IMG/VR virus record: IMGVR_UViG_3300023179_000041
Span: 42,279 to 106,278 of that record
DNA: 64,000 nt
DNA from: a virus
Strand: one strand, 5' to 3'
In this document: one piece after another, positions 35,835 through 62,197 of the stretch
How positions within the stretch are numbered: the stretch's first letter is position 1
Layout of the letters: each line of letters starts with the position of its first letter
Notes under the pieces: generated by a model
Told to the model about the DNA's origin: nothing
The model's database searches: none
What the model saw: the letters and a program-made list of their open reading frames with translations, nothing else
Translations under genes and position numbers: made by a program

Positions 35835-36119
35835 ATGATTGAAGGAAAACTAAAAGAGGTTACAAAGATTTCTGACCCAGTCGAACGCGCGCGTATTCTT
35901 CATTTTGAATTACTCCCAGCAGTTGCAGAAATTCGCCGCAGCATCATTGAGCAGCGCGCTCTTGCAATCAAAGAGTCGTGTGAGTTTGGTGGACCTGACG
36001 CAGAAGGACTTTCCTATTCGGCAATGGCTGGCGAACTGACAGTTTCCAAGCCGCTAATCCAGCAAATGGTGGCGTTGGCTCGCAAAATTGTTGCTGGTGG
36101 TCGGGCTCCCCTCGAATGA
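35835..36119 (+). CDS. HTH protein
   Basis: GLSYSAMAGELTVSKPLIQQM. Confidence 0.55.
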   Translation: MIEGKLKEVTKISDPVERARILHFELLPAVAEIRRSIIEQRALAIKESCEFGGPDAEGLSYSAMAGELTVSKPLIQQMVALARKIVAGGRAPLE

Positions 36120-42171: not shown

Positions 42172-42414
42172 ATGACAAGGAAGACGGAGTTCCGGCAGCC
42201 GCCGGGACCACGAAACGGCAGCCCATTTCAGGTTGCGCGTTTCGTAGACAAACTCAAAGAGACTCCTGGCGAGTGGGCGGTGTACTGCACCGGCAACATC
42301 GCGCGCACGGGTCACTCCAAAGCACAGCAATACAAGAAGCGATATCCGGGTACGGAATGGATTGTGCGACGCGAAGAAGGCGGCTACACCGTCTTTGGAA
42401 GATGGGTGGGGTAG
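42172..42414 (+). CDS. small hypothetical protein
   Basis: LKETPGEWA...VFGRWVG. Confidence 0.65.
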   Translation: MTRKTEFRQPPGPRNGSPFQVARFVDKLKETPGEWAVYCTGNIARTGHSKAQQYKKRYPGTEWIVRREEGGYTVFGRWVG

Positions 42415-47041: not shown

Positions 47042-47294
47042 CAATATGTGGGGGGTGACAGGTTGTCACCTCCACTACATATAGTATGTGACATCCGACA
47101 CAAGTAGTGACAGGTTGTCACCCTGGGGTGTCAGGCTGTCACCCCCTAGGTGACAGGTTGTCACCCCCTAGGTGTCAGGCTGTCACCCGCAAATATGGTA
47201 CAAATCTCGGGAAACCCTTACCCAGTAAGGGTTTGAGCCTGTACCATAGATATCTAACCGTCACTTAACCGTCACTATAACCGTCACTTAACCA
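47042..47294. repeat. iteron array / putative replication origin
   Basis: 5 x RGTGWCAGGYTGTCACC at 47054, 47106, 47127, 47149, 47171; imperfect palindrome 47194-47248; 3 x TAACCGTCACT. Confidence 0.75.
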
Positions 47295-47391
47295 CAAAGC
47301 GCGAGTGACCTCGCGCACAGAGGTTGTGGTGATGTCAAACAGTATGTATAATGAAGATGTAATACCAACACACATAGAAAGCAGAAAAGCA

Positions 47392-47556: not shown

Positions 47557-47780
47557 CGTAGCGTCCCTTGCGGCTGGGCAATCAGCCCCAAGGGAACGGC
47601 CGCACTGTAAATTAAATCCAATTTATCTGGAACACCATTTTTTGGGCCAGAGGCAAAAACCAAAGTAGCCGGGTCAGGCAAGAACCACATCCGCGAACAT
47701 ATTCTTTCGGGAAGGTTGCAAACCTGACTCGGCTATGGTACAATGTAGTTGTGGCACAACACCCACAGAAAGAAAAAATA

Positions 47781-49331: not shown

Positions 49332-49464
49332 AGAAACGCGATATTGCGAAGCGGGATGCGGTTATAAGTTGCCAGAAGAATACGGCGACGACGAGACCAT
49401 CTGTGGAGCCTGTTTGGACAATCCTGAATCTTGGGAAGAGTCAGACTTGACATCCGTAAAATAA
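49324..49464 (+). CDS. small Cys-containing protein (46 aa)
   Basis: CxxxC...CxxC; overlaps previous stop. Confidence 0.5.
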   Translation: MSKETRYCEAGCGYKLPEEYGDDETICGACLDNPESWEESDLTSVK

Positions 49465-49481
49465 CTGTCATACTTGACGAC

Positions 49482-49567
49482 GCGGCTGAGGCTTTCCTTC
49501 CTTGTGCCTCAGTCGTCGGGTGCGCGGCCCGTCCAGGTTCTTAATCCCTTTCTGTCCTGGGCGGGCC
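49482..49567 (+). ncRNA. candidate two-hairpin sRNA with anti-SD loops
   Basis: TTGACA(49447)...TGtCATACT promoter; loops TTTCCTTCCTTGT and TTCTTAATCCCTTTCTGT; G-U pairs on + strand. Confidence 0.55.
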
Positions 49568-49695
49568 CCCTGACCCCAAGGGAACGGCCTGCCGGTATAA
49601 ATAAATCCATTATTCGAGGAACACCATTTTTTGGGGCAGGGACAAAAACTCGGCAGCAAGATTCACAAACACACAACGGGGGCCCGGGCCGAAAG

Positions 49696-49716
49696 TTATC
49701 CACAGGCTGTGGAAAA
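49696..49716. promoter_or_regulatory. inverted pair of DnaA boxes
   Basis: TTATCCACA-GGC-TGTGGAAAA. Confidence 0.7.
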
Positions 49717-49882
49717 ATAATTCTTGAAATAGGTTGGCATTTGGGTATTCTCCCCCTATATTGGTATTACCAACGTGAACGAAATAAATATTCGCGATGG
49801 TGGTTGCGAAAGCAACGGCAATGTGATACACTTAGTAATAGCAATACCAACCCAAATAACCAAACACAGAAAGGCAATAGCA

Positions 49883-50926
49883 ATGTCCAAAGAAACTATG
49901 GAGTGGCTCAACTCCAACATTCTCGTCGGGTTCACCGCCGAGCGTGGGAACGCGTGGCACTACCGCGCCGACCTACAAGGTTCAGAGCCAAACCACTACG
50001 AAGGCGCGATTCCGACCGACGATATTCTTCGTCGGCTCTTCGCGTGGTCGGCAGTATCGGCTCCCGTTTTTGTTCGTGTCCCCGCGACACTTGAAGACGC
50101 GACCTCAACCGATGACGAAGGCAATCCAATCAAGTTCATTCGCGTAGAGCGTCAAGCAATCTTGCGCTCAGATACCAACGAACTGATGGAAATCTTCGGC
50201 AACGACTATCGCTCGCACCAATACGGCGAGTGGCTCGTTCAGAACCTTGCGAACATCGTTGATGGAAATATCAACTTTGGCTCGGCAGGGCTCTTGAAGA
50301 ACGGCGCAGTTGCGTTCGTCTCGTTGGAAATGCCAGAGTCAGTAGAAGTGTTGGAAGGATTCTCAGTCCGACCGCACCTACTCGCGACTACTTCGCACAA
50401 CGGAATGTTGGCAACGACCTACAAGAGCGTTTCTACATTCGTCGTGTGCGATAACACTCACGCGATGGCGATGAGCGAAAACACGAGTCAGTTCAAGACC
50501 CGACACAGCAAGTATTCGGGAATGAAGATTCAGTCTGCTCGTGACGCTCTTGGTATCGTTCACAAGATGACGGAAGATATCGTCGCGGAAGTGACGAAAC
50601 TGTCCGAAGTCAAAGTGACCGACGCAGAATGGCAAAAAGTGCTTGAAGCACTCGCGCCTATTCCGTCGCTTGCGAAAGACGAAAGCAACAAGGCAGCAGT
50701 GACGCGCGCAGAGAATAAGCGCGCCGAACTTGTCGGTCTTTACAACTACGATGTTCGCGTGGCACCGTGGAAGGGTTCAGCACTTGGAGTTCTTCAAGCG
50801 TTCAACACTTACAACCACCACATCGTCGGCAACGACAAGAACCGCGCCGAGCGCAATCAAATGAACGCGCTAATGGGCAAGACCGAGCAGAGTGACCGAA
50901 AGGTTCTCCAACTTCTCGGAGTCTGA
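49883..50926 (+). CDS. DUF932 family (phage/plasmid-like) protein
   Basis: AWH, SAGLL..G, LLATTSHNG, VVCDNT, RH. Confidence 0.85.
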   Translation: MSKETMEWLNSNILVGFTAERGNAWHYRADLQGSEPNHYEGAIPTDDILRRLFAWSAVSAPVFVRVPATLEDATSTDDEGNPIKFIRVERQAILRSDTNELMEIFGNDYRSHQYGEWLVQNLANIVDGNINFGSAGLLKNGAVAFVSLEMPESVEVLEGFSVRPHLLATTSHNGMLATTYKSVSTFVVCDNTHAMAMSENTSQFKTRHSKYSGMKIQSARDALGIVHKMTEDIVAEVTKLSEVKVTDAEWQKVLEALAPIPSLAKDESNKAAVTRAENKRAELVGLYNYDVRVAPWKGSALGVLQAFNTYNHHIVGNDKNRAERNQMNALMGKTEQSDRKVLQLLGV

Positions 50927-50958
50927 CCGCGTACAGGTGGGGTGCGAAAGCACCCCAC

Positions 50959-50972
50959 CGAACACGCGTTCG
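50959..50972. promoter_or_regulatory. LexA (SOS) box, actinobacterial type
   Basis: CGAAC-ACGC-GTTCG. Confidence 0.65.
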
Positions 50973-51290
50973 GGCCGCGAGCGCGCGGCGAGGCCGGGAA
51001 CAGGGACCGACGAACCGGACATGCCAGGGTCCAAGGGAACGGCGCAGCATAAGAATAAAACCATTGGTAATGGAACACCATTTCTTGGGTCGGGAGCAGG
51101 AGCAGGTTTACAGCGCACCGGCGCATAGCAAAACTGTTAGGCAAGCCTTACAAAAGAAACTTTGCACAATCTCAGTTTCGGGTTGCGCACCACACCCCAA
51201 GTGTGGTACAGTATAGGTATGGGGTTAGCACCCCAGAAAATAATTCAGAATAAGGTTGCGAAAGCGACTAGAATGTGATACAGTATAAGT

Positions 51291-51517
51291 AGTGGGAAAC
51301 CACTACGGAATCACTAACAACATACGGATAGCATTACCAGTCACGCGTTGTATCACCAGCGATGTGCGAGAGAAGTGCCGCGGCACCCACTCAGTTCCTC
51401 TCCTGCGATGAGCCGCCTCTGCTAGTCCCTGCTATCGGCGGCAACCAGACTTGCTATCTGGTGGGTCGCAACGAAATGGGCAACGACGGTTGCTGTTGGT
51501 GGTTTCGTAGTGGTTTC
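51291..51517 (+). ncRNA. candidate ~225-nt structured ncRNA
   Basis: own promoter; 24-bp 5'/3' stem whose three deviations are all G-U pairs; internal hairpins. Confidence 0.7.
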
Positions 51518-51609
51518 TGACTGCGATAGGTTGCGAAAGTGCCTAGCGTGTGATACAATCTAAGTAGTGGGCAATCCCGCCCACTACAAACACAAGGAAA
51601 GGCAACACA

Positions 51610-52062
51610 ATGAGTACCATCAGCAATACGACGGAACTGAGCGTGGGAGAAATCGTCTCACTGCTCGGCGCAAACTGTCTCAACACCAACCCGACTATCG
51701 GCACTGCCCCCACAAAGGCTCGTGTCGCACCCGTAGCGTTCCACGACGGACACCCAATCTGGGTCAAAGACTTGGAACAGCGTGGCGGAGATGTGTACGA
51801 CCTGCTGGATACAATCACCCCCGACGAGTCTGCGAACTATTACGGGGTCATTACGGCTGGTTGGGCTTCGCCCGTTGGAGACAACGACCACCTGCCACCG
51901 TCTCAGCACCCTGAGCGTCGGCGTGTGGAGTTGCTGGTCGTCGTCAATCGTGACGGCTCAATAGCAAGCGCACTCTCAATGTCGGGCAACGACGAACTGA
52001 TTATTGACGAAGGCAAAGCGCACGGCGCACTTGCCGACGCAGTTCTCGGTATCTTCGCCTGA
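51610..52062 (+). CDS. hypothetical protein
   Basis: GWA.P...PSQHPERRRV; promoter, SD and 3' hairpin. Confidence 0.75.
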   Translation: MSTISNTTELSVGEIVSLLGANCLNTNPTIGTAPTKARVAPVAFHDGHPIWVKDLEQRGGDVYDLLDTITPDESANYYGVITAGWASPVGDNDHLPPSQHPERRRVELLVVVNRDGSIASALSMSGNDELIIDEGKAHGALADAVLGIFA

Positions 52063-52071
52063 GTCAGTCGG

Positions 52072-52095
52072 GCTGGTGGGCAACCCCCACCAGCC
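52072..52095 (+). terminator. recurrent 3' hairpin GGCTGGTGGG-N-CCCACCAGCC (variants near 50935, 54635, 55519, 56913, 58538, 60105, 60495)
   Basis: same GC hairpin after many cassette genes; usually no U-tract. Confidence 0.65.
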
Positions 52096-52169
52096 CACAA
52101 CTCGGCCGGCAGGGGCAGAATCTTCCAAACAAAGTTGCAAAGCAACAGAAAGTGTGATACACTAGAACT

Positions 52170-52382
52170 ATGAGCACAAACACCGAAATCAAATATCCAG
52201 AGATAACAATCCCGCTTGAGGGCGAGGACGGAAATGCGTTTGCAATACTTGGGCGTGTTAGCCGTATCGCCAAGCAGGAGGGTGTCTCAAAAGAAGAGAT
52301 TAAAGCGTTTATGGATGAGGCGATGAGTAGCGATTATGACCACCTTCTCCGCACCGTGATGCGCTGGTTCTCGATTACCTGA
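52170..52382 (+). CDS. conserved small protein (GEDGNAFAILG family), leaderless
   Basis: LEGEDGNAFAILGRV...DYDHLL. Confidence 0.8.
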   Translation: MSTNTEIKYPEITIPLEGEDGNAFAILGRVSRIAKQEGVSKEEIKAFMDEAMSSDYDHLLRTVMRWFSIT

Positions 52383-52638
52383 GTTCGCTTCTACGGGATT
52401 GCACACACACCTAGGTGGTCTCCGTAGAACGAGGGCAGGGGCAGAGTATTCACTTTCTCTGTCCCTGCCCGACTCTCAGGTTGCAAATTCAGAAAAACCG
52501 CTACGCTTTAGTTCTTCCCGAGTTGAGTTCCCGGCGGGCCTTTTCCTCGGGAAGGCGCAGGGGCAGGGCACGGGCCTCCGTAGTCCCTGCCCCTCGCAGC
52601 AGGTTGCAAATCAACAGAAACTGTGATACAATATAACT

Positions 52639-52806
52639 ATGAAACCAAACCACTACTACGCACCATTCAAAAACTTTGAAGGCTGGGAAGTCTGGCTTTA
52701 CAGCGGGACAACTCGCCTAGACCGCATCTCTGGCCCTCATCAAGACCGCATCGCTGCCGAAAGAGCAGCAGCGCGTTTGATGAACGAAGAGTTGCTAAGT
52801 CAGTAA
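52639..52806 (+). CDS. small protein (55 aa), leaderless
   Basis: ATG 7 nt after TACAAT; below ORF track cutoff. Confidence 0.6.
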   Translation: MKPNHYYAPFKNFEGWEVWLYSGTTRLDRISGPHQDRIAAERAAARLMNEELLSQ

Positions 52807-52852
52807 ATAAGTGATACAATAGAGATAACACAACAAGAAAGGCACAAACACA

Positions 52853-53344
52853 ATGGGATACACGCACTACTGGGTACGAGACAAGCGCAATGTCGGCTCG
52901 GCTTGGATGTTCGGCAAACTTGCCCTAGACACCAAGAAGATTATTGAGCAGGCAAAGTCAGAAGGCATAGAAATATGCGGACCTCTTGGCAAAGGCGAGC
53001 CCGAGTTCACCGAGGCACACTTCTGCTTTAACGGAACCGAAGTCGGCGGACTTGACCACGAGACCTTTTGGTGGGAAGCACTGCCAACTCAGCCCGACTA
53101 CCAATACGAATACAAGAAAGGCACCGACCGTGAGAATGAGATTTTTGAGTTCTGTAAGACTGCTTACAAGCCGTATGACTTGGTGGTCGTGGCAGTTCTT
53201 CTCAGGGCTAAATACTGGTACGGAAATGTCGTAGATGTTTTTTCTGATGGTGGCTGGGATAGCGACTGGAAAGAAGGGCGAGCCTTCTACGAGCGCATCT
53301 TTGACGAAGTCGCACAGTGTCCACGAGACGAGGTGTCGGCGTGA
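52853..53344 (+). CDS. conserved phage protein (MGYTHYW family)
   Basis: MGYTHYW...FNG...HETF...FCKTA.KPYD.VV...SDG. Confidence 0.8.
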   Translation: MGYTHYWVRDKRNVGSAWMFGKLALDTKKIIEQAKSEGIEICGPLGKGEPEFTEAHFCFNGTEVGGLDHETFWWEALPTQPDYQYEYKKGTDRENEIFEFCKTAYKPYDLVVVAVLLRAKYWYGNVVDVFSDGGWDSDWKEGRAFYERIFDEVAQCPRDEVSA

Positions 53345-53505
53345 CGCGCCTCTATCGAGATATGGTCCACTTCGGCACCGAGGACTCATTCGACGCCTTT
53401 AAGCGGAAAGTAAACGATTACTACGACTGGTGTCTACGACTTGGTCGAGACCCCCAAAACGACGAGAACTGGATTACGTACCACGAGATGATGGCCAACG
53501 CTTAG
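53341..53505 (+). CDS. small hypothetical protein
   Basis: GAGG SD; GTGA overlap. Confidence 0.55.
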   Translation: MTRLYRDMVHFGTEDSFDAFKRKVNDYYDWCLRLGRDPQNDENWITYHEMMANA

Positions 53506-53761
53506 TCCTTGGCTGGCCCGGCCTCATCCTTTCCGGGCCGGGCCGGCACCCAAGGGAATGGCGCAGCCTTAAATAAATCCGAATATCGAGGAACACCATA
53601 TTTTGTGGCAGGGGCAGAATTCATCAATTGCTTATTAGCAAGTCGTGCAGATAAGCCGCAGGGGCCAAGGTCACTCTCCGTGGTCGAGCGGCCACCCTGG
53701 GCGGTCAGAACTTTTTTCCGTAGAAGTTGCCAACTGTCTAACAAACTGCTATAATCTAGGT

Positions 53762-54157
53762 ATGAGAACATACACACTCCCAAACATCAACCGTGAAGGT
53801 CGCGAATGTGACCCCACAGAACTTATCCAGCAAATCGGACTAATGAACCTCTACGCCATCTCTGGTGGTCTTTGGGGCTCTCTCCGTGACGCTGAGCAAA
53901 ACATAATCGGTGCGTGGCTGCCTGTCGGTCAAGGTCGTATGGTTGAGGTGTCGCTTGACTTTGACGACACCTACCGTGTCCGTTGCGTTCGCCGTGTTAT
54001 GCGTGGCAAGAACCGTAATCAGGGCATTATTGAGACCGAAGTAGTCGGTGTCTATTGCGACCAAGTGGGCGAGGCTGCCTATCAAGCGTCGTGCTGGCGC
54101 ACCAACAACTACCGAAAAGAAATCGCGTCACAGGTTGCCGACAGCGCAACGGTGTGA
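53762..54157 (+). CDS. hypothetical protein, leaderless
   Basis: QIG....AISGG...DTY.V...VYCDQ. Confidence 0.7.
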   Translation: MRTYTLPNINREGRECDPTELIQQIGLMNLYAISGGLWGSLRDAEQNIIGAWLPVGQGRMVEVSLDFDDTYRVRCVRRVMRGKNRNQGIIETEVVGVYCDQVGEAAYQASCWRTNNYRKEIASQVADSATV

Positions 54158-54212
54158 TACAATAGAGGTGTGGGGATAACCTCACGCTAAACCAAACAGG
54201 AAAGGCAATCAA

Positions 54213-54623
54213 ATGAGTAAAACAGTAAATGTTCGGGTCGCCAAGAGCAAGTTGCTCAAAGCCCTGAAAGAAGCACTTGACCGCAAGGTTGAGGAAGCGA
54301 ACAACCACGCCAAGGCTGAGAAGGCTCAGAAGCAGGCAATCGCAGACATCAAGAAGTCTGTCGCCGCGCTTGTGAAGTCTGGAAAACTCACGCCCAAAGA
54401 GGTGTCGTTTCCATACAACTATCACCGCTACGGCAACGAGGAAATCAACGAAGTCACCGTGACTTTCAGTCACAAGATTTCACTCCCCAAAATTGAGGGT
54501 TTCAGCGAGCACCGTAATCAGGAAGCGCAAGAGGAACTTTCTAACGCAATCCGAGTGCTGGAACTGTCCGACGAGGAGTATGTCCGTACTTCCTCATACG
54601 GCGCAGTAGCCAAGTATCTCTAA
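54213..54623 (+). CDS. coiled-coil protein
   Basis: promoter, SD and 3' hairpin. Confidence 0.75.
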   Translation: MSKTVNVRVAKSKLLKALKEALDRKVEEANNHAKAEKAQKQAIADIKKSVAALVKSGKLTPKEVSFPYNYHRYGNEEINEVTVTFSHKISLPKIEGFSEHRNQEAQEELSNAIRVLELSDEEYVRTSSYGAVAKYL

Positions 54624-54851
54624 GTGGTCAGCGAGGCTGGTGGGGCAACCCCCCACCAGCCCAGCCCCAAGGGAACGGCGCAAGGCAAAATAAATCCATT
54701 TATCGAGGAACACCATTTTTTGGGGCAGGAGCAGAAATCGCTTTCACCGGCCCCGGGCTTGTGAAAGTGTGAACAAGCACAAGCCGAATGTCACACAACT
54801 GTAATACTTCTCAGGTTGCCAAATGTCTAACACTATGCCTATAATGTAGTT

Positions 54852-55211
54852 ATGAACACCACACAAGGAACCAGCCCTAATGCTGGAAGCGCAATAGATA
54901 AGTTAGATGAGTTCACGGAATACTGCTTCGAGTTCTATCTGCTTGACCCAGAAAGACCGTCGCTGTACCCGTTTGCTCTGGATTGGGAAATCTGTCGTGC
55001 GGTAGTCGCCCACATGACTGACCCGAACCCGCTATTCCCGTTTGACGGTGATAGCGCAGACCGTGAAGCAGTCCGTGACCGTATTCTCGCAGACCGCCGT
55101 CTAATCGGCTGTGGCGAGACTAACTTCGACAAGGCTGTGGCAATGGGTCAGCACGGTATCCCGTCACGCTGGCGAACCTACGAACAGACGCTAGAAAAAA
55201 TCCTCAAATAA
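54852..55211 (+). CDS. hypothetical protein, leaderless
   Basis: FDGDS.DRE.VRD. Confidence 0.7.
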   Translation: MNTTQGTSPNAGSAIDKLDEFTEYCFEFYLLDPERPSLYPFALDWEICRAVVAHMTDPNPLFPFDGDSADREAVRDRILADRRLIGCGETNFDKAVAMGQHGIPSRWRTYEQTLEKILK

Positions 55212-55287
55212 GGTTGCTGTTCTGCCCCACATCTGGTATTCTGTAGATGTGGGGCAGAAGCACCACCAACACAAGAAAGGCAAGGAA

Positions 55288-55512
55288 ATGGAAACAGAAA
55301 TCCAGAAGCCACGACAAGCGGCAACGCTCTACTCGTGGAACACAGCCATTGACCAAATCAAAGTCAGGGTGAACGGCGGTCACTTAGAGGTTCGCATTGG
55401 TGACCTCTCTATCGTGATGAGCGCAGTCTCAGGCGAGCAGGTGCTCGACCTTGCGGCGGCGTTCAGTCAGGTGGAAGTCACCGACACCGTCACCAAGACC
55501 GTCAGGGTGTAA
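55288..55512 (+). CDS. small hypothetical protein
   Basis: promoter, SD and 3' hairpin. Confidence 0.65.
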   Translation: METEIQKPRQAATLYSWNTAIDQIKVRVNGGHLEVRIGDLSIVMSAVSGEQVLDLAAAFSQVEVTDTVTKTVRV

Positions 55513-55673
55513 GTGGTGGGCTGGTGGGGTGAAAGCCCCACCAGCAAACACCCAGCCGATAGGCCGGGAATAGGGGCCGACGAAAATAATCGGCCGCCGA
55601 GTTGCGAAAGCGTCTTGGGTGTGATACAATAAAAGTGTAAGGTAAACCAACAACAGAAAGGTAAGAAACAGAA

Positions 55674-55940
55674 ATGGCAAATGTTCCAGTCCCGTTTCAG
55701 GGAACCAAAGAAGAGGCTGAGGCTAACTACCTCACGCATTCGTGGTGGTCGTTTGACGGCACGCCCGTTTGCGGAGAATGTGACGCAAAGGCTTGGCACC
55801 AAGCGGCCAACTACCCTTGCGGCACCGAGCCTGAGCGTCTTAATGTCGCAGACCTATCAGAGTGGGCAGCCCTAATCAAGGGTGAAATCACGCTGGCAGA
55901 GTTGCGAGAGCGTGAAAAGTGTGATACAATAGAAGTATAA
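55674..55940 (+). CDS. small Zn-binding protein
   Basis: H.W...CxxCDA...YPCGT. Confidence 0.65.
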   Translation: MANVPVPFQGTKEEAEANYLTHSWWSFDGTPVCGECDAKAWHQAANYPCGTEPERLNVADLSEWAALIKGEITLAELREREKCDTIEV

Positions 55941-55996
55941 GGTCGAGTGCGGCTGGTGGGGTTCCTTACCTCCTTTCCCCACCAGCCCAAGACCTC
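55939..55996 (+). ncRNA. candidate hairpin sRNA with anti-SD loop
   Basis: promoter 55902-55930 with no gene downstream; loop TTCCTTACCTCCTTT. Confidence 0.55.
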
Positions 55997-56091
55997 CCCA
56001 CGGCAGGGCCGACAGGGGCAGAATCGCAGAAAGGCAGGTTGCAAAACGCGAACAGATGTGATACACTGGAAGTATGAGGAAAGGAAAAACA

Positions 56092-56328
56092 ATGACCAAG
56101 AAAATCAGGCAATACCGATACGAGCCCGTCGGACTGGATGTCTTTGACGCTCGCCCGCATCAGCCAAAGCGTGGAACCCTCGTGGTGAAGTGCTCAGGCG
56201 GAATGGGTGCGCCAAAGAACGGAACGATGGGTCACTCGTTCGTGAAAGACGCAGTGACAGGTGAGTTCTACGGCCTCGTGCTGAATAACTCACTGAAGCC
56301 CGCTGGCCTCGTCCCTACCTCACGGTAG
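56092..56328 (+). CDS. small hypothetical protein
   Basis: G.P.NGTMGH...GLV..NSL. Confidence 0.65.
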   Translation: MTKKIRQYRYEPVGLDVFDARPHQPKRGTLVVKCSGGMGAPKNGTMGHSFVKDAVTGEFYGLVLNNSLKPAGLVPTSR

Positions 56329-56440
56329 GGCGAGTGCCGCCCGGAGGCAAACTTTGCCGCCGAGGTTGTCAAACAGCAAAATAGGTGATACAATTTAAGT
56401 AGTGGGGCAAAAGCACCACCTAACAGAAAGGAAGTAAACA

Positions 56441-56905
56441 ATGCCATTGACATGGGATATCGGAAACACAAAGGCTTACGCCAAAGACCCTGACGGAATC
56501 TGGGTGAAAGACGAGTACGGTCACACCACCGTACGCGCCGACATTCAGACGTTCATCTTCTGGGGTGGCGTGGTCGGATACGGTCGCATCACCGAAGCAA
56601 ACGCTGCCGACTACTACGGTCGGTCAAAGGCTGTTGAGGCTCTGATGCAAAACTCAATGATGCACGAGTGGAGAGAAGATGGCGAACGCCACAACCTCTA
56701 CATCACTCCAGAGATGGTAGATGAGATGGTCGGACTCAGCACCAACCACAGCACCTACAGCATCACCGAGTGGGCAAACCGTATTGCGAAGTACGGAAAC
56801 AACGTGGTCGAGATGCCAGCAAAAGTCATCAAAGCCATCGTGACCACTGAGTCGTGGAACTACGAGCAGTGGGTCAAAGCCCAGAAAGAGTTAGTCACAG
56901 CCTGA
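56441..56905 (+). CDS. hypothetical protein
   Basis: MPLTWD...ITE.N...GLSTN. Confidence 0.75.
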   Translation: MPLTWDIGNTKAYAKDPDGIWVKDEYGHTTVRADIQTFIFWGGVVGYGRITEANAADYYGRSKAVEALMQNSMMHEWREDGERHNLYITPEMVDEMVGLSTNHSTYSITEWANRIAKYGNNVVEMPAKVIKAIVTTESWNYEQWVKAQKELVTA

Positions 56906-56962
56906 CGGGTCTGGCTGGTGGGGAACCACCCCACCAGCCGATGCCCGGAGGCAGAGGAAAAA

Positions 56963-57163
56963 ATGAACTACATCATCAAACTCGAAACAGCCGTGGGCGA
57001 AATCTGCCTCGGCCCATACTCAAAACTCAGTGAGGCGCTCAGAGTGGCAAAAACCAGGGGGCAAATCATTGCGGTCATCAAACCCACAAAACTAAACGCA
57101 GTAGATATTCAGGCCATGACCGAAGCAGAGTTGCTAAAACTCCTAGAGTGTGATACACTGTAA
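56963..57163 (+). CDS. small hypothetical protein
   Basis: GAGGA SD. Confidence 0.55.
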   Translation: MNYIIKLETAVGEICLGPYSKLSEALRVAKTRGQIIAVIKPTKLNAVDIQAMTEAELLKLLECDTL

Positions 57164-57187
57164 TTATCCAACAAGAAAGGAAACACA

Positions 57188-57340
57188 ATGAGCAAGACAA
57201 CGTGGTGGGAGCATCTCCCAGAAGACATCCAAGAAGGCAAAGCGCCGCTTACAGAAGACGACTTCTGGCAAGCAGTAGCCGATGCCAACGACCTTGATGT
57301 CTCCGAGATAGCAGATGGAGACGTCATCGAGTGGCTCTAG
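57188..57340 (+). CDS. small acidic protein (50 aa)
   Basis: promoter and GAAAGG SD; below cutoff. Confidence 0.6.
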   Translation: MSKTTWWEHLPEDIQEGKAPLTEDDFWQAVADANDLDVSEIADGDVIEWL

Positions 57341-57623
57341 CCAAGTGGGGTGAGTGGCCGGCGTGGTCACTCACCCCAAGGCTCGGGAGCCCAAGGGAAC
57401 CGCCCCGAAAACAAAAATTAAACCATTTCTGACGGAACACCATTTCTTTGCCGGGGGCAAAAACAAGGTCGCGGGCTTGTGAAAGTTCGTACTATCACTT
57501 GTTAGGCACGCCTAACACCTATTGTTACAGTTGTGTAACAAGTGTCGCACAATGCGAGGAAATCTACCCCACCAATGGTATGCTTAGAGTGTAAGGTAAA
57601 AACAACAACAAGGAGAAAACACA

Positions 57624-57794
57624 ATGAGTGAAGTGAACGTCACCTACCTAACATGGGACGAAGTACCAGAAGAAATCCAATGGGAATACTACGAGCGCAT
57701 AATGGCGAAGACGTGGCACCCATGCGACCGCATGAACGAAGACAAGGCATGGAAGTACGCCGAAGAACTATGGGAAAACGAAAACGGTAGGTAA
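57624..57794 (+). CDS. small protein (56 aa)
   Basis: AAGGAG SD; below cutoff. Confidence 0.6.
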   Translation: MSEVNVTYLTWDEVPEEIQWEYYERIMAKTWHPCDRMNEDKAWKYAEELWENENGR

Positions 57795-57859
57795 CTCCGT
57801 TACACCCATAAGGCATAATGAGAGTGTAAGGCAATAACAAAACAACAAGGAGAAACCCA

Positions 57860-58132
57860 ATGAGAATAGAAGTAACCCAACTCAACTCAACGGCAGTGAG
57901 AAAACTCACTTACGTTCTGGGTGCTATTGACCCAGCCGAGACAGACGAAAATAACGAACTCACCTATGGTGAACTAGTTATTGAGTACGCCAACGGTAGC
58001 GAGTATGTCTACTACGACGTAATGCTCGGCGTGTTCACTGACCTACTCAATGCGAAGAGCATTGGGCGAGCCGTGAACGAAGACATAAAGCCGACCCACC
58101 GCTACGACAAACTCGCAACGGTAAACGCCTAG
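57860..58132 (+). CDS. KTSC domain protein
   Basis: STAV..L.Y...L.IEY.NG..Y.Y.DV....F..LL.A.SIG...N..IK. Confidence 0.75.
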   Translation: MRIEVTQLNSTAVRKLTYVLGAIDPAETDENNELTYGELVIEYANGSEYVYYDVMLGVFTDLLNAKSIGRAVNEDIKPTHRYDKLATVNA

Positions 58133-58306
58133 TAGCAAACGGGTGTAACACAGTTAGCAATAACTGTGTTACACCCCCACGCTAAAATGGGAGTGTGGGA
58201 GAGAACTGCGTTAGCCCAGGGGCAAAACTTTCAGACGAGGTTGCGAAATCACTAGAAGTGTGATACACTTAGAGTGTAAGGTAAACCAACAACAAGGAGA
58301 AACACA

Positions 58307-58528
58307 ATGGGAACATACAGCAACCTGCCCCCGGGCGTCAGCGTCAGCGACCTCCCGGGCTGGCACGACATTACGGCAGAGGTAGAGATTATCTGCCCAA
58401 ACTGCGGCCACCAGTATTGGGAAGAACACGAAATTGACGGGCGTTGCGGATACACAACAGATGTCGAGACCCAGTGCCCAAACTGCCTACGCAGGTGGGA
58501 GCACCCAGTAACCGTGTCGCTTGACTGA
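58307..58528 (+). CDS. small Zn-ribbon protein
   Basis: NLPPGVS..DLPG; two CPNC. Confidence 0.7.
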   Translation: MGTYSNLPPGVSVSDLPGWHDITAEVEIICPNCGHQYWEEHEIDGRCGYTTDVETQCPNCLRRWEHPVTVSLD

Positions 58529-58579
58529 CCGAGCGCAGTGGTGGGGCGCAAGCCCCACCCGAACGCGCAGGGGCAGAAT

Positions 58580-58593
58580 CGAACAGGTGTTCG
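58580..58593. promoter_or_regulatory. LexA (SOS) box
   Basis: CGAAC-AGGT-GTTCG. Confidence 0.65.
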
Positions 58594-58673
58594 CCCGTGC
58601 GCCAGAGGCCGCGGCGGGCGGCGAGGCACGCGCAGAGGGCGGAGAGCGTCTCCCACCTCTCCCGTCTATTATT

Positions 58674-58702
58674 ATTGTATCACACAGCGAGAGAAAAAAC
58701 AA
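58674..58702 (-). promoter_or_regulatory. leftward promoter (also 59695-59723 and 61285-61313)
   Basis: TTG...-17-TACAMT with TG extension on the minus strand. Confidence 0.7.
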
Positions 58703-58819
58703 CCTGAGCCGGCAAAAAGTTTCTGAAGTTTCTGCCCGAATAGGTTGCGAAGTGTCTAACAATCTGGCATAATTGAGTTAGTAGGGAAACCGAAGTACCT
58801 ACGAGAGAGAGGTAATGAA

Positions 58820-59110
58820 GTGAGTTATTACAAACTGCCGAGAGGCGCAAAGCGCACGAGCGAGTGGGCTGAGGTATCCAGCGAGGCTTACCCTACGGGG
58901 TGGGCTTACGACGAGATTACCAAAGTCACCTACGAAGCCGAAGTGACCTACGACGATGGCATAAAGGCAAACGCCGTTATGGTGGAGTTGTACCACAAAG
59001 GCAAGCGTGTCTATCGGCAAGCGTTCTACGGCGAGACAGCCGACAGCGACGCTTGGCGAGAGAGTGGCGACGCCCTCAACAAGTTGGCAATGGCAACGCC
59101 AACCGCATAG
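58820..59110 (+). CDS. small hypothetical protein
   Basis: GAGGT SD; FYGETA.SDA.R. Confidence 0.65.
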   Translation: MSYYKLPRGAKRTSEWAEVSSEAYPTGWAYDEITKVTYEAEVTYDDGIKANAVMVELYHKGKRVYRQAFYGETADSDAWRESGDALNKLAMATPTA

Positions 59111-59287
59111 GTCGTGAGAGCACGGCGGGGTTCAACCTCCTTCCCCCGCCGTGCCAGACCTCTCCCGCCAAAGGCCGGGAATAGGGGCTGACGAAAAAAA
59201 GTTGGGAATGAGTTGCGAAGTTATCGAGAGTGTGATACACTAATAGTAGTGGGGCAACCGCACCACTAGACCAAGGAAGGAAACACA

Positions 59288-59479
59288 ATGAGTACCCACA
59301 TCTACCACAACCTCAAAGCGGAGGGTGTCGTCGTAGAAATGCGAAACGGCACACTTGTTATCGAAATGCGCGAGGGAGACAAGTGGACTTGGCTGAACAT
59401 TACGGGCGAAATCGTAGAAATCGCTCGCAAGTTGGGCAACCCAACCGTCAAGGCAAAGCCAGAAACGGTAAACGCCTAA
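59288..59479 (+). CDS. small hypothetical protein
   Basis: promoter and AAGGAAGG SD. Confidence 0.65.
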   Translation: MSTHIYHNLKAEGVVVEMRNGTLVIEMREGDKWTWLNITGEIVEIARKLGNPTVKAKPETVNA

Positions 59480-59832
59480 GAGCGCAAGTGGGCTGAGGGG
59501 GACGAGAAGTGCCCCCTCGGCTCAATGCTCACGGCCGGGAGCCCAAGGGAACGCCTAGCGCAAATAAATCCAATTATCAGGAAACACCATATTTTGGGCG
59601 GCCGGGAGCAGGAGCAGTCTGAGGCGCGCGGGAAAAGACAAGAGGGGGGAGGGCTAGGGCTCTCCCGTGTCGCCTGCCTTGCCCTACTACTATCAGTGTA
59701 TCACACTCCGACGGAAAAAGCAACCTCAAAAAGAAAAATAAGTTTCTGCCCGAATAGGTTGACAAATGTCTAACAGCGTGCCTATAATGTAGTTGTAGGG
59801 AAAAAGAAGTACCTACAGAAAGAGGTAATGAA

Positions 59833-61137: not shown

Positions 61138-61394
61138 TCCCGAGGGGGGAGGGCGACCTCCCCCACAAGGGGCGGCCAGGGGCCGCGCGGGGCGCGGCGG
61201 GCAACCCAGGGCGAAGAGGGGCGCGCGGGCTGCCACTTGCCGGAGAGGGGCGCGAGCCGTCTCCTACCCCACCCCTACAATAATAGTGTATCACAGACTG
61301 ACGCAAAAAGCAACCTCAAACAAAAAATAAAAAATGCTCAGGAAGTTGCGAAACCTTGCGAAGTGTGATACAGTATTAGTAGGAGGAAAACACA

Positions 61395-62096: not shown

Positions 62097-62197
62097 CCTG
62101 CGAGCAGGGGCAGACCAGCCCCGAAGGAACGCTTTGCGCAAAAATAAATCCGAACATTCTGGAACACCATATTTTGGGCAGCCGGAGGCAAAAGTGA

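Follow-up and report, generated by a model that had tools for sequence, protein, structure and literature searches.

What would a phage do with RNA hairpins whose loops look like the 3′ tail of 16S ribosomal RNA (rRNA)? The question is raised by the last 64 kb of the IMG/VR virus record IMGVR_UViG_3300023179_000041, positions 42,279 to 106,278 of a 106,278-bp record with a completeness estimate of 79%. This stretch of 64,000 nucleotides (nt), hereafter the window, holds five hairpins with pyrimidine loops, H1 to H5. A preliminary description took them all for phage small RNAs (sRNAs) that silence host and/or early phage messages led by a Shine-Dalgarno (SD) sequence, while leaderless phage messages escape.

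Our data support that H1–H5 are conserved, structured RNA elements of the + strand with selected loops. As to their function, we give about an even chance to the reading that the loops base-pair with ribosome-binding sites (RBSs), compete with the 30S subunit and lower translation. H1–H2 would then be a dedicated sRNA, and H3–H5 would be unit-terminal hairpins with generic anti-SD loops in addition. This answer builds on the structure, conservation, strand, position and complementarity of the hairpins, which are matters of observation.

All five hairpins are found where they had been placed. Their GC-rich stems of 11–13 bp carry loops of 10–18 nt that are 83–93% pyrimidine (Table 1), their folding z-scores range from −3.8 to −5.2 and none of 200 shuffles folds as well. 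In the whole 106-kb record, stems of at least 7 bp with loops of at least 9 nt and at least 80% pyrimidine are limited to H1–H5 plus one weak case. They are a subset of ~30 GC hairpins at 49–64 kb, most others of which have GNRA or CAACC loops, and one stem, GGCTGGTGGGG/CCCCACCAGCC, serves six hairpins that differ in their loops. The outer AGGTC/GACCT stem described at two loci is common to H4 and H5. The Rfam cmscan of positions 36000–64000 on both strands with 4227 families gives no match at E up to 1.

The G-U pairs that had been said to indicate + strand RNA are present in three stems, those of H1, H2 and H3. The + strand also folds more stably than the − strand for H1–H2 (−48.7 versus −42.0 kcal/mol) and for H3 (−29.7 versus −25.9 kcal/mol).

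The tandem H1–H2 lies ~400 nt upstream of a DUF932-like gene. It is present in every relative, designated by L numbers, that has this protein at least ~77% identical and enough upstream sequence, L040 having H2 alone and L036 having both with variant loops. In the alignment of 14 distinct H1–H2 sequences, 90.6% of the cells are paired and 16 of the 23 pairs show compensatory changes (7/11 in H1 and 9/12 in H2). The observed pairing is reached by none of 500 shuffles, and slid controls give 37–53%. Loop conservation in relatives, on which the preliminary description had staked its reading, holds good: the loops are nearly fixed while the stems covary; H2 keeps CCTTTCTG, and the 3′ part of the H1 loop keeps CCTTGTG. 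The G-U pair at the H1 base is kept in 13 of the 14 sequences, therefore the RNA is on the + strand.

The H4/H5 type is aligned at 16 sites in eight genomes, where pairing in the inner stem reaches 99.4% and 8 of its 11 base pairs show compensatory changes. Its 5-bp outer stem and asymmetric internal loop recur with differing sequences. Every loop in this alignment contains CCTCC, and several read TCACCTCCTT, which equals 10 nt of the general bacterial 16S 3′ tail. At the H3 position, L003, L004, L005, L025 and L037 have other stems, and the loops have a CCTTTC or CCTCCTTTCC core.

The preference for pyrimidine is broad among the relatives. Among 226 unique strong hairpins of the record and ~30 relatives' loci, loops of at least 10 nt are pyrimidine-rich in 44 cases versus purine-rich in 6, and all 44 carry CCTCC, CCTTTC or TCCTT. 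The control genomes, namely Rhodococcus phage Trogglehumper (29 kb), marine relatives at 50% protein identity and a relative of 69% GC, have none or one weak pyrimidine-loop hairpin. A pattern scan of IMG/VR with the H1 and H2 loops finds true relatives only among the contigs already known, and 9 of its 13 matches are unrelated AT-rich phages, antisense to coding sequence.

The hairpins lie in what appears to be a lytic phage's early region, which runs from ~48 kb to the window end with small genes on the + strand. All genes are on this strand, as are 21 of 23 promoter-like sites. Most small early genes have the strong promoter TTGCGAA-N12-TGTGATACAAT, found in 23 copies at no more than one mismatch and only on the + strand, and the window has 29 copies of the early −10 motif GTGATACA versus 1.5 expected. 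The early leaders are A/C-rich and have SD sequences such as ACAGAAAGG, ACAAGGAG and AGGAGG. The main early RBS classes in the window (n = 38) are GAAAGG (14), AAGGAG/AAGGAA (11) and GGAGG (9), and the hairpin loop cores correspond to them.

The two pairings proposed earlier are exact. The H1 loop at 49493–49504 is complementary to 59272–59283 in 12 of 12 positions, and CCTTTCTGT of the H2 loop is the complement of ACAGAAAGG at 49866, 55653 and 56423. Either ACAGAAAGG or ACAGAAAG also stands at the RBSs 47765, 48440, 55653, 56423 and 59815. The + strand of the record has 10 copies of ACAGAAAG, most of them at RBSs, and the − strand has a single one, opposite the complement in H2; a rough estimate of the random expectation for an 8-mer is ~1.6 per strand in 106 kb.

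For H2, the pairing exceeds that of shuffled loops. Contiguous complements of at least 8 nt are found at 12 of 65 early RBSs versus 1.5 for shuffled loops (P<0.002), and outside the early region the H2 loop shows no excess (2/84 RBSs). The excess at early ACAGAAAG(G) leaders is also seen in L004, L005 and L037, making four lineages. When the loops are paired with 37 RBS windows, the mean duplex energies are −6.7 to −8.9 kcal/mol versus −3.2 to −4.5 kcal/mol for coding controls. With the same windows, the 16S tail gives −9.2 kcal/mol, which the loops roughly equal, and two other hairpin loops give about −2 kcal/mol.

The loops differ in what they add to the SD complement. The ACA flank of the leaders pairs with the UUGUG in the H1 loop and with the GU that closes the H2 loop on its 3′ side, and a 16S tail ending in CCUUUCU would not reach that far. 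The H3–H5 loops carry the generic anti-SD cores CCUCC and CCUUUC. In L001, the RBS orthologous to the 59272 site has 13 nt complementary to the H1 loop.

Two more specific pairings were considered and rejected. The 59272 site as a specific target of H1 is kept in L001, but L037 shows no change that compensates for its altered loop, and the L003–L005 loci lack a site of this kind. A pseudoknot between the loops and AAGGGAA of a 75-nt repeat after H2 and H3, where UCCCUU could pair with AAGGGA, fails since this motif became AAGGAAAA in L003 and L029 with the loop unchanged.

Position separates H1–H2 from the rest. In each of the 10 distinct lineages, the H1 stem is preceded at 5–7 nt by a −10-like NAnnnT hexamer (CATACT, TATACT, TAATCT, TATTCT, TACTGT, TACAGT or TAAACT), although the upstream genes differ. 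Because of this constant spacing, H1–H2 is probably a primary transcript starting at the hairpin. It very probably has its own promoter and is probably a stand-alone sRNA of ~90 nt.

H3, H4 and H5 are unit-terminal hairpins at the ends of early transcription units and no separate genes. They start 7–11 nt after stop codons, ahead of the next promoter, and small-loop hairpins sit likewise after other genes. H3 comes 7 nt after the stop codon at 53503–53505 and is followed by a copy of the 75-nt repeated element, and H5 comes 10 nt after the stop codon at 59108–59110. They follow the same orthologous genes across lineages. The designation as phage sRNAs would suit H1–H2 rather than H3–H5. The two promoters without a gene that had been assigned to H1 and H4 are both found as promoter-like sites in the window, but they fare differently in relatives: the −10-like hexamer before H1 is in all lineages, and the 55902 promoter, present in the window and the L001-type relatives, is absent in L003, L004 and L005, which keep the hairpin.

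Table 1. Coordinates of the hairpins and associated features (window positions unless a relative is named)
Feature	Position	Strand	Description
H1	49482–49516	+	11-bp stem, two G-U pairs; loop 49493–49505 TTTCCTTCCTTGT, complement of ACAAGGA-type leaders
H2	49526–49567	+	12-bp stem; loop 49538–49555 TTCTTAATCCCTTTCTGT, complement of ACAGAAAGG and GAAAGGGA leaders
H3	53512–53547	+	13-bp stem, two G-U pairs; loop 53525–53534 CATCCTTTCC
H4	55940–55995	+	Outer 5-bp stem 55940–44/55991–95, internal loop, inner 11-bp stem 55951–61/55977–87; loop 55962–55976 TTCCTTACCTCCTTT
H5	59109–59161	+	Outer 5-bp stem 59109–13/59157–61, inner 11-bp stem 59120–30/59144–54; loop 59131–59143 TTCAACCTCCTTC
Promoter-like site	49447–49474	+	TTGACA, 16 nt, CATACT, TG before −10; would start transcription at the H1 base
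Early-type promoter	55902–55930	+	TTGCGA, 17 nt, TACAAT, TG extension; within the 3′ end of gene 55674–55940; would start RNA at the H4 outer stem
ACAGAAAGG leader tag	49866–49874	+	RBS of DUF932-like gene 49883–50926; candidate H2 target
CAAGGAAGGAAA	59272–59283	+	RBS of gene 59288–59479; perfect 12-nt complement of H1 loop
ACGAGAAGTG-loop family	window 59489–59524; L001 15499 and 18261; L004 17602; L037 19421		Purine-rich loop
~75-nt element copies	47583–47660, 49575–49646, 51027–51100, 53549–53620, 54660–54735, 59542–59610, 62110–62193		Seven co-oriented copies
G-rich motif	52108–52120, 52434–52446, 53607–53619, 56000–56020		GGCAG(A/G)GGCAG(AA)
Leader-opening hairpins	51564–51587, 56396–56420, 59243–59268		AGTAGTGGGGCAA..GCACCAC
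GTGATACA on − strand	51349–51356, 58676–58683, 59697–59704, 61287–61294	−	Four copies
DnaA-box-like pair	49696–49716		Two inverted 9-mers
Repeat array	47050–47300		GGGGGTGACAG / TGTCACC, orientation alternating

The reading to which we give an even chance would work as follows. Stable GC stems would hold the C/U-rich loops of 10–18 nt single-stranded. These loops would present either a copy of the 16S rRNA 3′ tail (CCUCC, CCUUUCU, or UCACCUCCUU in relatives) or sequence complementary to the phage's own early leader tags (ACAGAAAGG, ACAAGGA). By pairing with SD regions they would compete with the 30S subunit, so that less translation results. H1–H2, made as an sRNA of ~90 nt from its own promoter, would be aimed mainly at phage early leaders for feedback on or shut-off of early genes. 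H3–H5 would end or stabilise early transcripts, and their generic anti-SD loops would work either within the message that carries them or from a stable 3′ fragment of it. That the RNAs are made, accumulate, pair inside the cell and have an effect is predicted here from the sequence.

Several results weigh against this reading. In the count of contiguous complements, H1 is marginal and H3–H5 show no excess over shuffles. Composition-preserving shuffles of the H1 and H3–H5 loops pair with RBSs nearly as well (z of −1 to −2), so these loops are conserved beyond the needs of generic SD pairing. No covariation between loop and target is found in the relatives' loci of ~20 kb. In L037, the H1 loop gained two C and the matching RBS stayed AAGGAAGGAAA. 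The RBSs of the hairpins' own and next genes are mid-field for pairing among all RBSs, at ranks 4 to 44 of 56. The identity of a loop with the 16S 3′ tail, as first described, is true for the general bacterial sequence, which may or may not be that of the host. None of the 22 public runs listed as containing this DNA is RNA.

The gene starts also bear on it. About 70% of genes are SD-led, with a duplex energy of −6 kcal/mol or better, in the early, middle and structural regions alike. A leaderless-escape switch is therefore unlikely as the main logic. The late and structural genes being SD-led too, global SD blocking would hit them. Only about four leaderless starts are seen, at 47751, 52170, 52639 and 54852, and the idea that leaderless phage messages escape the silencing is weak. 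At these starts, the start codon comes 6–7 nt after the −10 hexamer, as in TACACTagaactATG, which points to leaderless messages of a few early genes.

A second hairpin family is also conserved in its loop. It has the purine-rich loop ACGAGAAGTG, invariant as ACGAGAAG(T/C)G, on at least four different GC stems at gene ends. This loop has no complement in the anti-SD loops or elsewhere in the genome. Since it is kept on varying stems, conserved loops here need not mean SD pairing, and they may serve protein binding too in this phage. This, too, counts against the pairing.

The hairpins might work only at transcript ends, in termination, processing or 3′ protection. Their conserved loops would then be contacted by a protein of the phage or the host, for instance a nuclease, antiterminator or processing factor, and the anti-SD likeness would be incidental. 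We regard this as unlikely, if deserving of attention. H3–H5 take the same place, 7–11 nt after stops and before the next promoter, as ~25 other small-loop hairpins. The stem GGCTGGTGGGG recurs with the loops CAACC, GAAA and AACCA and with an anti-SD loop. The outer stem and asymmetric internal loop of H4 and H5 resemble the RNase III processing sites of T7 early RNA. The ACGAGAAGTG loop on covarying stems and the exactness of loop conservation above generic pairing needs would suit it as well.

The terminal hairpins, however, do not resemble canonical Rho-independent terminators, which have a short loop and a U-tract. No T run comes directly after any of H1–H5, and canonical hairpin-plus-T terminators are not enriched (23 found versus 22 expected). 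The loops of 10–18 nt would weaken a hairpin that serves solely as terminator or protector. Moreover, there are four loop sequences, all of them SD complements in differing registers, which a single protein site does not explain, and the H2 excess is specific to early RBSs.

The pairing could also be confined to cis, the loop of a 3′ hairpin pairing with its own message's SD or, on read-through transcripts, with the next gene's, and limiting translation. The 3′ untranslated region (UTR) of icaR in Staphylococcus aureus works by such cis pairing of its C-rich 3′ anti-SD motif with the SD of the same message. H3–H5 are alike in having a 3′ anti-SD motif, and from lineage to lineage they belong to the 3′ UTRs of given orthologous genes. 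Intramolecular pairing requires less complementarity, and the H4 loop has CUUACC where the RBS of its own gene has GGUAAG, in the window and L001. Yet this match comes from one lineage pair, and by the ranks given above, own-gene and next-gene RBSs pair no better than other RBSs; unlike in icaR, the own-gene SD has no special match. Cis action does not suit H1–H2 either, which has its own −10 element and stays ~400 nt before the DUF932-like gene while the genes upstream of it vary by lineage. We thus hold an exclusively cis action to be quite unlikely.

As a further alternative, the loops may imitate the single-stranded 16S 3′ tail and serve as decoys that soak up a tail-recognising factor, for example the anti-SD-cutting toxins of host toxin-antitoxin systems, a class recently described in mycobacteria, and so protect ribosomes. 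We consider this very unlikely. Slimmer still is the chance of its narrower form, in which CACCU, UCCUU and CCUCC decoy loops would titrate host MazF- or RelE-type abortive-infection nucleases that cut the anti-SD, as an RNA-based counter-defence. Phage pseudo-ToxI RNAs are a comparable RNA counter-defence, and a decoy here would be aimed at ribosome-targeting toxins.

In support of decoys, UCACCUCCUU, a 10-nt piece of the general 16S tail, recurs in loops of relatives. Mycobacterial MazF-mt11 cuts 16S rRNA at C/ACCU, 11 nt from the 3′ end, MazF-mt3 cuts U/CCUU and MazF-mt6 cuts UU/CCU, the slash marking the cut (PMC12274833). RelE1 is also reported to target the anti-SD region (PMC12620021). 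Short MazF-type cleavage motifs recur in the loops, and exact conservation beyond the pairing needs would suit a protein substrate. However, CACCU is in only ~7 of the 16 H4/H5-type loops, the invariant core being CCUCC, the pairing core. The H1 and H2 loops extend to UUGUG and CUGU, which complement the leader flank and are not 16S sequence. A very high copy number would be needed.

It is hardly credible that the − strand is the functional one, its loops showing SD-like purine runs (GAAGGAGGUUGAA) as traps for 30S subunits or CsrA-like proteins. In its favour, H4 and H5 lack G-U pairs and are as stable on one strand as on the other, and leftward promoter-like GTGATACA is at 58676, 59697 and 61287, but the G-U pairs in H1, H2, H3 and several relatives, including that kept at the H1 base, would become A-C mismatches, the + strand carries the genes and almost every promoter, and no − strand promoter is near H1–H4. 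As a separate matter, the four − strand copies of GTGATACA have no obvious leftward genes and may drive antisense transcripts through early units, H5 included.

How, then, does the pairing of loops with RBSs compare with known systems? The c4 antisense RNA of phages P1 and P7 (Rfam RF01695) has exposed loops pairing with the RBS region of phage genes, in a single operon (icd-ant) of a temperate phage. It is alike in being a phage RNA with RBS-pairing loops, while the hairpins here have many candidate targets and several loop types.

The closest architecture is that of the cuckoo/CcsR (RSs0680) RNAs of Alphaproteobacteria. In these, 2–4 adjacent hairpins of 24–50 nt have anti-SD-like loops of 9–27 nt on variable stems, in multiple copies (PMC4615179). 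H1–H2 is built in common with them, H1 being 35 nt with a 13-nt loop and H2 being adjacent and 42 nt with an 18-nt loop. H3–H5 differ as single hairpins at gene ends, and all the elements here are phage-borne. The cuckoo loop motif CCUCCUCCC is in no loop here, the loops being UUUCCUUCCUUGU, ..CCCUUUCUGU, CAUCCUUUCC and ..ACCUCCUU. Also, there is one loop motif there and several here (UCCUUGU, CCUUUCUGU, CCUCCUU).

Relatives of the DUF932-like protein (phrog_1221; gene 49883–50926) are in 578 phage records, nearly all from Actinobacteria, so the host is likely actinobacterial. In this probable host phylum, the 6C sRNA of high-GC Gram-positives likewise has GC stems and C-rich loops pairing with purine-rich RBSs, and it represses without a chaperone (PMC6486639). 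It has two stem-loops with six conserved C, whereas the loops here are mixed C/U and resemble the 16S tail. The elements here also occur in several copies on a phage, some of them joined to transcript ends. RsaE/RoxS and RNAIII of S. aureus and LhrC1-5 of Listeria also block SDs with UCCC or CU-rich loops, LhrC being multicopy (in part PMC4132741). They are host-encoded, stress-regulated and have U-tract terminators, whereas the loops here are longer 16S-tail copies without a U-tract.

The Rfam covariance models of cuckoo, 6C and c4 (RF01695) do not match the hairpins. As both motif and model tests fail, the hairpins are outside the cuckoo/CcsR, 6C, RsaE, LhrC and c4 families. A trans-acting anti-SD sRNA should have its own promoter and a gene-free transcript, accumulate and repress its targets, and carry a single-stranded seed complementary to RBSs beyond chance. 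Of these traits, the seed is seen in H2, in four lineages; H1 is marginal for it, and H3–H5 are not above shuffles.

Several other features accompany the hairpins. The phage is an uncultured freshwater one, and its relatives come from lake metagenomes. With 8 kb as the query, megablast finds no match among 50,697 phage records, and the scan for transfer RNAs finds none. The ~75-nt element has the pattern CCCAAGGGAACGGC .. AAATAAATCC .. N9 .. GGAACACCATtTTTTGG .. GGCAGGGGCAGAA. It is usually directly 3′ of a unit-terminal hairpin, has many copies in relatives and could be an alternative promoter, an RNA or a protein site. The G-rich motif recurs 3′ of unit-terminal hairpins and at the end of this element, and it also comes after most hairpins in relatives.

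The gene-free stretch between H1–H2 and the DUF932-like gene has two inverted DnaA-box-like 9-mers, TTATCCACA ggc TGTGGAAAA, kept as TTATCCACAGCCTGTGGATAA in L001, L003, L004 and L005. By its sequence, the pair may be an origin or a DnaA-responsive site. The array of alternating repeats, also in L001, L004, L005 and L026, looks like iterons. Small hairpins open some early 5′ leaders right after the predicted start site and may be 5′ stabilisers.

To our knowledge, sRNAs with anti-SD loops are known from bacteria and hardly from lytic phages, and in the literature we found no report of anti-SD loops fused to the terminal hairpins of early transcripts. Covariation over dozens of metagenomic sequences defines the hairpin family, which could enter RNA family libraries though the host is uncultured. 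If the loops cover RBSs, the phage would have an RNA-only means to time or limit its early protein synthesis, a job comparable to that which T4 does with the proteins RegA and RegB. The loops that are exact copies of the 16S tail could also compete for host messages.

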